Shown: positions 47,057 through 48,727 of the stretch, one piece after another | How positions within the stretch are numbered: the first letter of the stretch is position 1 | Layout: each line of letters opens with the position of its first letter | Origin: a phage | DNA: 64,000 nt | Strand: one strand, 5' to 3' | Sequence record: PZ179882.1 | Notes under the pieces: generated by a model | What the model saw: only the letters and a program-made list of their open reading frames with translations | What the model was told of the DNA's origin: nothing | Databases searched by the model: none | Program-made: the position numbers and the translations under genes

Positions 47057-47132
47057 TGGTCGAGGCAGTAGGGATCGAACCTACGACCTAGGACTTAGAA
47101 GGTCCTTGCTCTTCCTTCTGAGCTATGCCCCG
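47057..47132 (-). tRNA. tRNA-Arg (anticodon UCU)
   Basis: Hand-folded cloverleaf: acceptor CGGGGCA/TGCCTCG, anticodon loop CTTCTAA, T-loop TTCGATC, CCA encoded. Confidence 0.8.
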
Positions 47133-47138
47133 TAATTG

Positions 47139-47211
47139 GGTGACCGATGGGAGTCGAACCCATGACTACGAGAATCACAATCTCGAGTTCTACCAACTGA
47201 ACTACGGCCAC
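47139..47211 (-). tRNA. tRNA-His candidate (anticodon GUG), CCA not encoded
   Basis: Acceptor GTGGCCG/CGGTCAC, anticodon stem CGAGA/TCTCG with loop TTGTGAT, T-loop TTCGACT, discriminator C; the 3' flank is CAA rather than CCA and position -1 is U. Confidence 0.6.
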
Positions 47212-47325
47212 ATTAATACCTACTCCAACAATCAAGATGTCTTCACACGAAATTAAGAGAAGAGTGATCAGTTCAACCCCTATAATCGCGTCAAGTAGAT
47301 ATTAATGTGACAGTTGTCACAAATT

Positions 47326-47400
47326 TGGCGGACGTGATAGGATTCGAACCTATAACCAATCGCTTAACAGGCGATCGCTCTGCCATTGAGCTACACATCC
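47326..47400 (-). tRNA. tRNA-Asn (anticodon GUU)
   Basis: Acceptor GGATGTG/CACGTCC, anticodon loop CTGTTAA, T-loop TTCGAAT, CCA encoded. Confidence 0.7.
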
Positions 47401-47404
47401 AAAT

Positions 47405-47491
47405 TGGTGGGGAGTGATGGAGTCGAACCACCCGAGTCGCAATGACAATGGATTTACAGTCCACACCGCTACCTCTACGGGATAACTCCCC
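47405..47491 (-). tRNA. tRNA-Tyr (anticodon GUA), long variable arm
   Basis: Acceptor GGGGAGT/ACTCCCC, anticodon loop CTGTAAA as in bacterial tRNA-Tyr, 87 nt, CCA encoded. Confidence 0.7.
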
Positions 47492-47503
47492 TAATTCGTA
47501 ATT

Positions 47504-47578
47504 TGGTGGCCCTGGGTGGAATTGAACCACCATCTGGCGATTATGAGTCGCTTGCTTGAACCTTCCAGCTACAGGGCC
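47504..47578 (-). tRNA. tRNA with CAU anticodon (Ile2-type or Met)
   Basis: Acceptor GGCCCTG/CAGGGCC, anticodon stem-loop GCGA-CTCATAA-TCGC resembling lysidine-type tRNA-Ile2; CCA encoded. Confidence 0.7.
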
Positions 47579-47579
47579 T

Positions 47580-47655
47580 TGGTGCTGATTGACGGAATCG
47601 AACCGCCGACCTTCTCATTACAAGTGAGTTGCTCTACCTACTGAGCTAAATCAGC
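47580..47655 (-). tRNA. tRNA-Thr (anticodon UGU)
   Basis: Acceptor GCTGATT/AATCAGC, anticodon loop CTTGTAA, T-loop TTCGATT, CCA encoded. Confidence 0.75.
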
Positions 47656-47660
47656 AAAAC

Positions 47661-47750
47661 TGGCGGAGGCGATAGGATTTGAACCTATGAGTCGCCGGAG
47701 CGACTGCCGGTTTTCAAGACCGGTGCATTAAACCACTCTGCCACGCCTCC
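47661..47750 (-). tRNA. tRNA-Ser (anticodon UGA), long variable arm
   Basis: Acceptor GGAGGCG/CGCCTCC, anticodon stem CCGGT/ACCGG with loop CTTGAAA, 90 nt. Confidence 0.8.
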
Positions 47751-47752
47751 AG

Positions 47753-47826
47753 TCTCCGTGGCAGGATTTGAACCTACGACATTCTGCTCCCAAAGCAGAC
47801 GCTCTACCAAACTGAGCTACACGAAG
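47753..47826 (-). tRNA. tRNA-Pro (anticodon UGG), CCA not encoded
   Basis: Acceptor CTTCGTG/CACGGAG, anticodon loop TTTGGGA; abuts tRNA-Ser, like the classic T4 Pro-Ser dimeric precursor. Confidence 0.75.
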
Positions 47827-47836
47827 TAAATTAAAT

Positions 47837-47910
<74 letters not shown>

Positions 47911-47915
47911 AAATT

Positions 47916-48002
47916 TGGTGCGAGAAGTGGGACTCGAACCCACAAGGAAATCATTCCGCAGCATTTTAAGTGCTGTGCCTTTACCAATTTGACCATTCTC
48001 GC
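47916..48002 (-). tRNA. tRNA-Leu (anticodon UAA), long variable arm
   Basis: Acceptor GCGAGAA/TTCTCGC, anticodon stem CAGCA/TGCTG with loop CTTAAAA, 87 nt. Confidence 0.75.
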
Positions 48003-48008
48003 TCTATA

Positions 48009-48641
48009 TTATTTATTACGTGAAAAAGATTGTTCTATCAATTCTGGACACTTTCGTTCTATCCATTTTCTAGCTTTTTGTGGGCTTATACCTATTATTT
48101 TAGCAGCTTTACTAACCCATCCAAATTTAGAATAATCGATTTTAACTAATTCTTCGTAAATTTCATCAGTTAAAATCTTTTCATTAATATTTACCAGTAA
48201 ATGATATAATTTATTATCATTAGCAATTTTAATGAATCTTTTATAGTTTCCGCCTTTACTTAAACCTAATGAAGTAATTGCAGATGATATAGTAGCTGAA
48301 TTTAATAGTGCGTTTAAAATTTCTTCATCACTAACATTATAACGCTTTTTATTATTTTTAATATTTTTACCGGCAAAAGTATCAGTTTGCGAATGGCAAT
48401 TTGGACATAATAATCTTAAATTTGATTTAAGATGATTTTTGTTATTTCCATCAATATGGTCTAATTGCAGAACAATATGCTTATTTTGCCATTTTGAAAT
48501 TTTACAAATTGCACACTCATATGGAAAAATATTTTCTTTTATTATTTTGTCTTTCAGCTTTCCTGTACTAAAATTTGGATGTTTTCCTTCAAAAATTTCA
48601 GCTAATTTAGTATCCATAATATAATTCCCAATTATTAACAA
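48009..48641 (-). CDS. HNH family endonuclease (free-standing, homing-endonuclease-like)
   Basis: HNH core CAICKISKWQNKHIVLQLDHIDGNNKNHLKSNLRLLCPNCHSQTD; probable real start at internal Met MDTKLAEIF; the stop codon lies 6 nt from the tRNA-Leu 5' end. Confidence 0.7.
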   Translation of the reverse strand: MLIIGNYIMDTKLAEIFEGKHPNFSTGKLKDKIIKENIFPYECAICKISKWQNKHIVLQLDHIDGNNKNHLKSNLRLLCPNCHSQTDTFAGKNIKNNKKRYNVSDEEILNALLNSATISSAITSLGLSKGGNYKRFIKIANDNKLYHLLVNINEKILTDEIYEELVKIDYSKFGWVSKAAKIIGISPQKARKWIERKCPELIEQSFSRNK

Positions 48642-48727
48642 AGGCTCTCAAACAAGAACCCTTGATGATAGAGGGTATTAATCAGTGCGATATGAGTTAA
48701 TAATAACAAATAATTCTTAAAGCATAT

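Follow-up and report, generated by a model that had tools for sequence, protein, structure and literature searches.

An HNH endonuclease gene stands in place of tRNA-Gln at the head of a T4-like phage tRNA cluster: a probable homing endonuclease of the F-TflIV clade

Results

Features of the locus

The window, that is, the whole 64-kb stretch of phage DNA analysed here, is a segment of a Tequatrovirus (T4-like) genome. Over 1,100 T-even-type records match the 4.3 kb around the gene under study, a stretch in which the window and Escherichia phage DCP2 are 99.1% identical. The gene immediately precedes tRNA-Leu(UAA), the first member of a tRNA cluster on the same strand (Table 1). As listed, its open reading frame spans 48009-48641 (-) and yields 210 aa when read from a TTG. 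The full 202-position profile of PHROG 14736 ('HNH endonuclease', E=6e-124) aligns with residues 9-210 of this frame and all annotated orthologues begin with MDTKLAEI, and on these two grounds we set the start at the ATG: judged by profile and orthologues, the true gene is 48009-48617 and encodes 202 aa, 48641 being an upstream TTG. The protein of about 200 aa put forward in an earlier, sequence-only reading of this DNA is thus confirmed with corrected boundaries, and so is its end 6 nt from the 5' end of tRNA-Leu, a tRNA that both ARAGORN and Rfam place at 47916-48002 (-). Many Tequatrovirus records contain an annotated 'HNH endonuclease' gene at 100% identity to it, and the PHROG match together with 5527 homologues speaks against a chance open reading frame.

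No terminator-like site was found between the HNH gene and tRNA-Leu or toward the upstream region, and a sigma-70 promoter scan near the gene gave nothing above shuffle expectation. Inspection by eye pointed to a candidate middle-mode promoter missed by that scan, in which a MotA-box-like TGCTTTA is followed after 12 nt by TATTAT, an arrangement that we take to fit the T4 middle-promoter pattern. This stretch is conserved in HNH-less phages (alignment A1, described below). As a putative promoter of the tRNA cluster, it would in the present phage serve the HNH gene as well as the tRNAs. An RNA fold of the 5' leader that pairs the start region was not better than shuffles (z=-1.24), and on that account we make no claim of translational masking.

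Table 1. Features at the head of the tRNA cluster, in window positions
Feature	Position	Strand	Description and basis
Candidate T4 middle-mode promoter	48700..48724	-	MotA-box-like TGCTTTA (48724-48718), 12 nt, TATTAT (48705-48700); by eye
5' junction, TGGGAATTA	48622..48630	-	9 nt identical to the tRNA-Gln 5' end of HNH-less relatives; alignment A1 with ZN18 and ACG-C40
HNH endonuclease gene	48009..48617	-	202 aa; ATG 48617-48615; stop TAA 48011-48009; ORF list and PHROG 14736
HNH / zinc-finger nuclease core	48363..48527	-	residues 31-85: CxxC ... DH ... N ... CPNCH
Middle helical module	48207..48332	-	residues 96-137; predicted helix-turn-helix-type DNA-binding domain; three helices in the AF2 model
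C-terminal helix-turn-helix module	48027..48167	-	residues 151-197
Spacer, HNH stop codon to tRNA-Leu 5' end	48003..48008	-	6 nt; 3' junction of the replacement; sequence and alignment A1
tRNA-Leu(UAA)	47916..48002	-	first tRNA of the cluster here; ARAGORN; Rfam tRNA 59.3 bits
tRNA cluster	47057..48002	-	10 genes: Leu, Gly, Pro, Ser, Thr, Met, Tyr, Asn, His, Arg; ARAGORN

Nuclease core and predicted fold

Judged by its invariant residues and its fold model, the gene product is a classical HNH (His-Me finger) nuclease of the PF01844 type. Invariant columns in a 40-sequence family alignment (A2) are C35, C38, W43, H54, G57, N66, L67, C71, P72, N73, C74, H75 and T78. They comprise both CxxC pairs of the structural zinc site (C35 and C38, C71 and C74), the catalytic histidine H54, which stands in a D-H dipeptide with D53, and N66, N73 and H75 of the HNH motif. 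The catalytic residues are retained in relatives down to 35-40% identity. The HNH motif that had been called clear from the sequence is accordingly borne out, and no loss of a catalytic His or Asn is seen across the alignment.

Taken alone, the window protein reaches 17.2 bits against the Pfam HNH model (PF01844), under its gathering score of 21.4; since 29 of the 40 family members match PF01844 and 26 match PF13392 (E<=0.01), we read this score as a shortfall in the sensitivity of the model. NCBIfam gives matches to the HNH regions of IscB, ZorE and YajD; PHROG, NCBIfam and Pfam all indicate HNH at the family level. In an AlphaFold2 model (pLDDT 90), which resembles HNH domains, the HNH motif folds into two strands followed by a helix, the beta-beta-alpha-metal arrangement. 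A Foldseek search of the PDB with the whole-chain model gave no significant match, and PDB sequence searches with the single protein and with the family profile found no solved relative. Beyond the nuclease core, the family alignment reveals a conserved block in the middle module, 'SDeeL..A....I.qAL...GL...GgNY.R', and the predicted structure suggests that this module binds DNA. The protein is thus composed of an N-terminal, zinc-stabilised HNH nuclease head and two modules of helix-turn-helix type with a presumed role in DNA binding.

A replacement of tRNA-Gln in Tequatrovirus

The site was compared with that of an HNH-less phage, ZN18, whose flanks are 99.2% identical to those of the window, and with that of ACG-C40, which carries the HNH gene (alignment A1). 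Window and ZN18 have the upstream sequence in common through TGGGAATTA, differ beyond it, and match again from the first base of tRNA-Leu onward; between these points 619 nt of the window (48003-48621) stand for 65 nt, the rest of a tRNA-Gln gene. The HNH gene is a replacement of tRNA-Gln, not a simple insertion. The tRNA-Gln that heads the cluster in most relatives is missing here, and none was found elsewhere in the 64-kb window; the clusters of ZN18 and wV7 hold 11 tRNAs. The shared TGGGAATTA overlaps a weak GGGA Shine-Dalgarno-like element 8 nt ahead of the ATG. It may be a remnant of tRNA-Gln, junction microhomology or part of an incoming cassette; the upstream regions of the window and of two orthologous loci from another genus (L007 and L008, see below) share just a core of about 10 nt, TAATTGG(G)AA.

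In the phage collection, 64 Tequatrovirus records carry the HNH protein at an identity of at least 95%. Exactly 64 records cover the HNH-type junction and 446 the Gln-type junction, counts that, like the proportions drawn from them, are approximate because database records are redundant. The gene always occupies one single site and occurs in about 12% (about one eighth) of Tequatrovirus records; far from being universally present, it is missing from some 446 of them. Within the yueel1 species, EC.W14-2 has the HNH gene and YUEEL01 lacks it. In T4, tRNA-Gln (72458-72530) lies directly upstream of tRNA-Leu, in the slot that corresponds to the HNH gene, and T4 is absent from the tblastn matches listed at 60% identity or more.

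These comparisons bear on two proposals of the sequence-only reading. Its view that the gene sits at the site analogous to that of segB has to be abandoned: segB of T4 (71253-71918) is found some 540 bp deeper in the cluster, flanked by tRNA-Arg and tRNA-Ile, and T4 has tRNA-Gln at the HNH position. Because PD112, JEP6 and BYEP01 carry segB and the HNH gene together, the two are not alternatives at one site. Its proposal of a homing-endonuclease insertion holds as regards a free-standing HNH gene, which fits the sporadic distribution, but has to be amended in that the gene replaces tRNA-Gln rather than simply inserting.

Orthologues in other T4-like genera

The closest homologues outside Tequatrovirus occupy the equivalent syntenic position in other T4-like phages, where the genes run gp2, gp3, gp1, 57A, 57B, small ORFs, HNH gene and tRNAs; their products are 68% (locus L006) and 58% (L007 and L008) identical to the window protein. 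When the Marfavirus-like L006 is set against Klebsiella phage PhiKpNIH-6, the HNH gene is found in place of an 83-nt tRNA-Asn, after an intact tRNA-Gln. Downstream of the gene in L006, the sequence from GCGAGA onward resembles the first 25 nt or so of tRNA-Leu; ARAGORN and Rfam make no tRNA call there. L007 and L008 resemble Erwinia phage Cronus (Roskildevirus), relative to which the HNH gene and about 80 nt stand in place of tRNA-Gln(UUG) and a tRNA-like remnant; the last six HNH codons and the stop codon in these two loci are sequence also present in the HNH-less genome. Presence/absence polymorphism of the same gene lineage therefore extends over three genera, each time at the cost of a tRNA gene.

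tRNA neighbours across the wider family

When IMG/VR was scanned with a pattern from the family alignment, 80 loci were obtained, of which 76 remained after removal of redundancy. A tRNA lies within 5 kb of 72 of these 76 relatives and at least three tRNAs accompany 63, a density of 1.2 tRNAs per kb. In 30 of the 76, a same-strand tRNA overlaps the stop codon or starts no more than 60 nt from it. This downstream neighbour is tRNA-Leu(UAA) in 12 of the 30 cases, against 36 of 821 tRNAs (4.4%) in the background (binomial p=2e-9), and tRNA-Leu of any kind in 17 of the 30 (p=3e-9). On the upstream side, tRNA-Gln(UUG) is the neighbour in 5 of 34 cases against a background of 2.8% (p=0.002). The stop codon placed 6 nt from tRNA-Leu(UAA) in the window is a family signature, and the gene belongs to an ordinary kind of mobile element with an unusually clear preference for tRNA clusters.

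A single cassette of HNH gene and tRNA-Leu travelling as one unit was considered as the sole explanation of this signature and rejected, since no two of the 13 Leu-adjacent proteins exceed 67% identity and the 12 abutting tRNA-Leu(UAA) genes have quite different sequences. Judged by these comparisons, the association of the family with tRNA-Leu is old or has been repeatedly re-established and does not reflect one recent cassette.

Selection and flanking sequences

Nine HNH-positive and eight HNH-negative loci were compared. The HNH genes of the nine phages differ at no more than 13 of 609 nt and all nine open reading frames are intact; 16 variable codons are synonymous only and 4 change the amino acid, a pattern that shows purifying selection. 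The gene has a GC content of 25.8%, whereas that of the window is 34.8%.

The flanks are mixed with respect to the gene. The tRNA-Pro region exists as two haplotypes 11-12 of 79 positions apart, and the place of the upstream gene is taken by trna.2 in some phages and by an unrelated 516-bp ORF in others; in both cases each type occurs with the HNH gene and with tRNA-Gln. Four cluster layouts accompany the HNH gene: one with 10 tRNAs, one of the segB type, one with a SegB-like gene for tRNA-Pro, and one with a 160-aa ORF for tRNA-Thr. The tRNA-Leu genes of HNH-positive and HNH-negative phages are 97.7-100% identical with zero fixed differences, and across tRNA-Leu/Gly and the 100 nt upstream nothing consistently distinguishes carriers from non-carriers. 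Neither HNH-linked flanking SNPs nor a co-conversion tract were found in the nine HNH-positive and eight HNH-negative loci. Alignment columns flagged as 'FIXED' were considered as linked SNPs and rejected, all of them falling within tRNA-Gln force-aligned to the HNH body. Because the flanks show no consistent difference between carriers and non-carriers, nt 10-74 of tRNA-Gln, together with the junction to tRNA-Leu, are the only sequence by which self and target could be told apart. The mixing of haplotypes is what horizontal spread predicts, and general T-even recombination could produce the same. Tandem amplification was seen neither in the window nor in the nine loci examined.

Discussion

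The locus holds an HNH gene with an intact motif that replaces a tRNA gene, is present or absent at this slot in three genera, and belongs to a family whose members abut tRNAs. Our preferred interpretation, to which we assign a probability of roughly 0.75, is that this gene encodes a homing endonuclease of the F-TflIV clade that is active or was so until recently. That its specific target is the tRNA-Gln/tRNA-Leu boundary is a plausible but tentative addition. The target cannot simply be tRNA-Gln, because L006 keeps an intact tRNA-Gln beside its HNH gene; the junction, or a conserved tRNA feature, is more likely than tRNA-Gln as such.

The course of events that we infer is as follows. From the first slot of the tRNA cluster, the HNH gene would be expressed along with the tRNAs under the promoter or promoters of the cluster itself, and its message would terminate where RNase P excises tRNA-Leu, as has been proposed for segB at tRNA-Arg (PMC2330249). 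When an HNH-less relative infects the same cell, the enzyme would nick or cut the DNA of that relative at or near the tRNA-Gln/tRNA-Leu junction. The break would be repaired from the HNH-carrying genome, and the recipient would thereby acquire the HNH gene and lose its tRNA-Gln. The carrier itself would be immune, because the sole sequence that consistently differs, nt 10-74 of tRNA-Gln, is missing from its own genome. That the gene could also mobilise the tRNA island, as the sequence-only reading had suggested, is plausible by analogy with SegB (PMC2330249).

Several observations weigh against this interpretation, among them the sub-threshold Pfam score, the Foldseek search without a significant match and the tRNA-Gln kept by L006. 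A frequency of about 12% in Tequatrovirus is low for an efficient drive, and mosaic T-even recombination could yield the same mixing of haplotypes, no co-conversion tract having been found in the loci compared. Three alternatives were considered.

The first of these, which we consider unlikely, is that the nuclease has been domesticated or put to dual use, and is kept because its breaks stimulate recombination or segmental amplification of tRNA genes and not through homing. There is a precedent in SegB, likewise a nuclease of the T-even tRNA cluster, which drives the amplification of tRNA genes to escape Septu (PMC13096335), and the purifying selection on the HNH gene, its place within a tRNA operon and the near-constant residence of its relatives in tRNA arrays would all agree with such a role. 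The HNH gene, however, removes a tRNA and adds none, no tandem amplification accompanies it in the window or the nine loci, and its absence from about 88% of close relatives is unexpected for a generally useful function.

A quite improbable alternative is that the gene is an immobile relic that entered once, has since been inherited vertically and is reshuffled only by general T-even recombination, its present pattern being one of ancestry and loss. Flanks devoid of a co-conversion signature and the low frequency of the gene are in line with this history, as is the strong mosaicism of T-even genomes, which the variable layouts of the tRNA cluster illustrate. A relic is nevertheless difficult to reconcile with nine intact reading frames out of nine, an excess of synonymous changes and catalytic residues kept down to 35-40% identity, or with presence/absence variation at equivalent slots of three genera, where the tRNAs replaced are not all the same; the precise, family-wide abutment to tRNA 5' ends, moreover, is hard to explain without site-specific insertion. 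Finally, it is most improbable that the nuclease serves another substrate or role (competitor exclusion, host DNA degradation or RNA) with its tRNA adjacency incidental: HNH domains do have many roles (PMC5714182) and the best partial NCBIfam matches are the HNH domains of IscB and ZorE, but the association with tRNA genes is statistically strong, a nuclease head with helix-turn-helix modules and homology to F-TflIV is typical of homing endonucleases, and partner genes of a defence system are absent nearby.

Returning to the homing endonuclease reading, the family data permit a broader proposal, which we offer as a possibility short of an expectation: a widespread and deeply diverged clade of small HNH proteins may use tRNA 5' boundaries as a landing pad across unrelated phages, with a preference for tRNA-Leu(UAA), often beside tRNA-Gln(UUG), each invasion swapping out one tRNA (Gln in Tequatrovirus and the Roskildevirus-like phages, Asn in Marfavirus). 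If this proposal is true, such elements would be a main driver of turnover of the tRNA repertoire in phage arrays and, like SegB, might supply breaks for the amplification or exchange of tRNAs under tRNA-cleaving defences. Phage tRNA genes are in part counter-measures to bacterial defences that cleave tRNAs (PMC13096335), and adding, removing or shuffling them therefore affects host range. Here the insertion of a selfish nuclease would cost the phage a tRNA gene, deleted in the process. As regards annotation, the replacement corrects the idea of a segB analogue and accounts for the presence in some T4-like phages of 10 tRNAs instead of 11. The family data also give a testable prediction of the cut position, the tRNA-Gln/tRNA-Leu(UAA) boundary, and nucleases that read conserved stretches of tRNA genes could become a source of new site-specific nickases or cutters.

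Comparison with known systems

Several elements of this picture are familiar. [quoted passage not shown] HNH genes are also interspersed in the tRNA arrays of mycobacteriophages and other phages, where they have been proposed to create diversity in the tRNA repertoire (PMC6409571); that work gives no account of a precise abutment to tRNA 5' ends, of a preference for Leu(UAA) and Gln, or of one-for-one replacement of a tRNA. No paper on the window gene emerged from our literature search, nor any that describes how it replaces tRNA-Gln or the preference of the clade for tRNA-Leu(UAA) and tRNA-Gln.

MobA-E of T4 resemble the window gene in being free-standing HNH genes of T-even phages, situated between conserved genes and sporadic in distribution (PMC2988022; PMC2790892), and the Mob proteins belong to the same His-Me finger group 1 as F-TflIV (PMC5714182). 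Unlike the window gene, none of the five lies in the tRNA cluster (Table 1 of PMC2988022).

SegB of T4, a GIY-YIG enzyme, is closer in setting. It too is encoded by a free-standing gene in the same tRNA operon, phages that have it likewise tend to lack tRNA genes, and its stop codon, like that of the HNH gene, abuts a downstream tRNA, so that in both cases tRNA processing would trim the message. What SegB recognises is sequence conserved in tRNA genes, and adjacent tRNA genes are carried along with it (PMC2330249). The two differ in nuclease family, which is unrelated, with no detectable similarity between the proteins (best E=2.8) and only HNH families among the family matches of the window protein, and in the slot occupied, Arg/Ile for segB as against Gln/Leu for the HNH gene.

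The closest characterised relative is F-TflIV, the product of T5 hegA, which BLASTP aligns with the window protein at 35% identity over 170 aa (E=2e-22); a tblastn search with the window protein gave matches to hegA of T5 and BF23, and the GenBank annotation of the Tequatrovirus gene already reads 'HNH endonuclease, similar to T5 TflIV'. Papers that cite the original work describe F-TflIV of T5 as an HNH endonuclease with site specificity (Akulenko et al. 2004, cited in PMC2330249 and PMC5714182). As judged by gaps in the alignment, F-TflIV is longer by about 55 residues at the N-terminus and is without the middle module; T5 belongs to the Demerecviridae and not, like the phage studied here, to the Straboviridae, and its upstream tRNAs are Ser/Ile2. 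The two proteins nonetheless have in common the CxxC-DH-N-CPNCH core and a C-terminal helix-turn-helix, and both are encoded by free-standing genes in a phage tRNA region, just after a tRNA, which in the case of T5 hegA lies 23 nt upstream. By sequence similarity and by residence in the tRNA region alike, the window gene is a member of the F-TflIV clade.

Nuclease-type ORFs in the Tequatrovirus tRNA cluster

The tRNA cluster of Tequatroviruses is a hotspot in which nuclease-type ORFs each take the place of particular tRNA genes, as exemplified by phages OE5505 and CM8 and by T4 segB (see table). The HNH protein, the CM8 SegB-like protein and the OE5505 ORF all match PHROG 16521, and near the C-terminus each has the same short helix-turn-helix motif, D[YF]SK.G..SK.AK.IG[IV]S..[QK]A[RK]. 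Over this motif, the HNH protein and the GIY-YIG protein of CM8 are 50% identical (24 aa, E=2e-4). The shared motif and family match suggest that one DNA-binding module is common to different nuclease heads of the tRNA cluster.

Between the head of the cluster and trna.2, phages CM8, phiD1, teqskov and OMNI12 contain an extra 171-aa ORF of unknown function (phrog_2290), the occurrence of which in some Tequatroviruses is independent of the presence of the HNH gene. Within the window, tRNA-His and tRNA-Asn are separated by a 114-nt spacer that is kept in other Tequatroviruses with 10 or 11 tRNAs, and in which neither a tRNA nor an Rfam match was found.

Regions associated with the HNH gene in other phages

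In Roskildevirus-like phages the slot occupied by the HNH gene or tRNA-Gln is directly preceded by a gene for a small membrane protein of the DUF1328 type. Its last few codons are not the same in genomes with and without the HNH gene, because the replacement junction falls inside the 3' end of the gene.

In Marfavirus-like phages, a nearly perfectly conserved non-coding stretch of about 400 nt lies 3' of the HNH gene or of tRNA-Asn. It starts with GCGAGACCAAGCTGGTAA, which resembles the 5' end of tRNA-Leu; ARAGORN and Rfam revealed no tRNA or known RNA in it, and a 50-aa ORF is annotated inside it in one record.

Several IMG/VR phage tRNA arrays that hold relatives of the HNH gene also contain suppressor-type tRNAs with CUA and UUA anticodons, which hint at stop-codon reassignment in those phages.

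Location of features in the window and in the compared loci (L)
Feature	Location	Strand	Remarks
segB	L003:2754-3419	-	T4; Tyr/Asn/His position
SegB-like GIY-YIG gene	L014:1783-2391	-	CM8; tRNA-Pro position
160-aa phrog_16521 ORF	L012:1732-2214	-	OE5505; tRNA-Thr position
Helix-turn-helix motif, HNH protein	window 48066-48137		residues 161-184
Helix-turn-helix motif, SegB-like protein	L014:1783-2391		CM8; residues 171-194
Helix-turn-helix motif, OE5505 ORF	L012:1732-2214		C-terminus
171-aa phrog_2290 ORF	L014:3318-3833, L015:3318-3833, L020:2764-3279, L021:2765-3280	-	between cluster head and trna.2
tRNA-His/tRNA-Asn spacer	window 47212-47325		
DUF1328-type gene	L007:3746-3919, L008:3743-3916, L103:448-618		57 aa; Roskildevirus-like
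Conserved ~400-nt stretch	L006:4606-5009, L102:782-1190		Marfavirus-like
Suppressor-type tRNAs	L040:9879-9954, L055:7889-7964, L060:2983-3056, L074:1398-1468, L093, L098		IMG/VR
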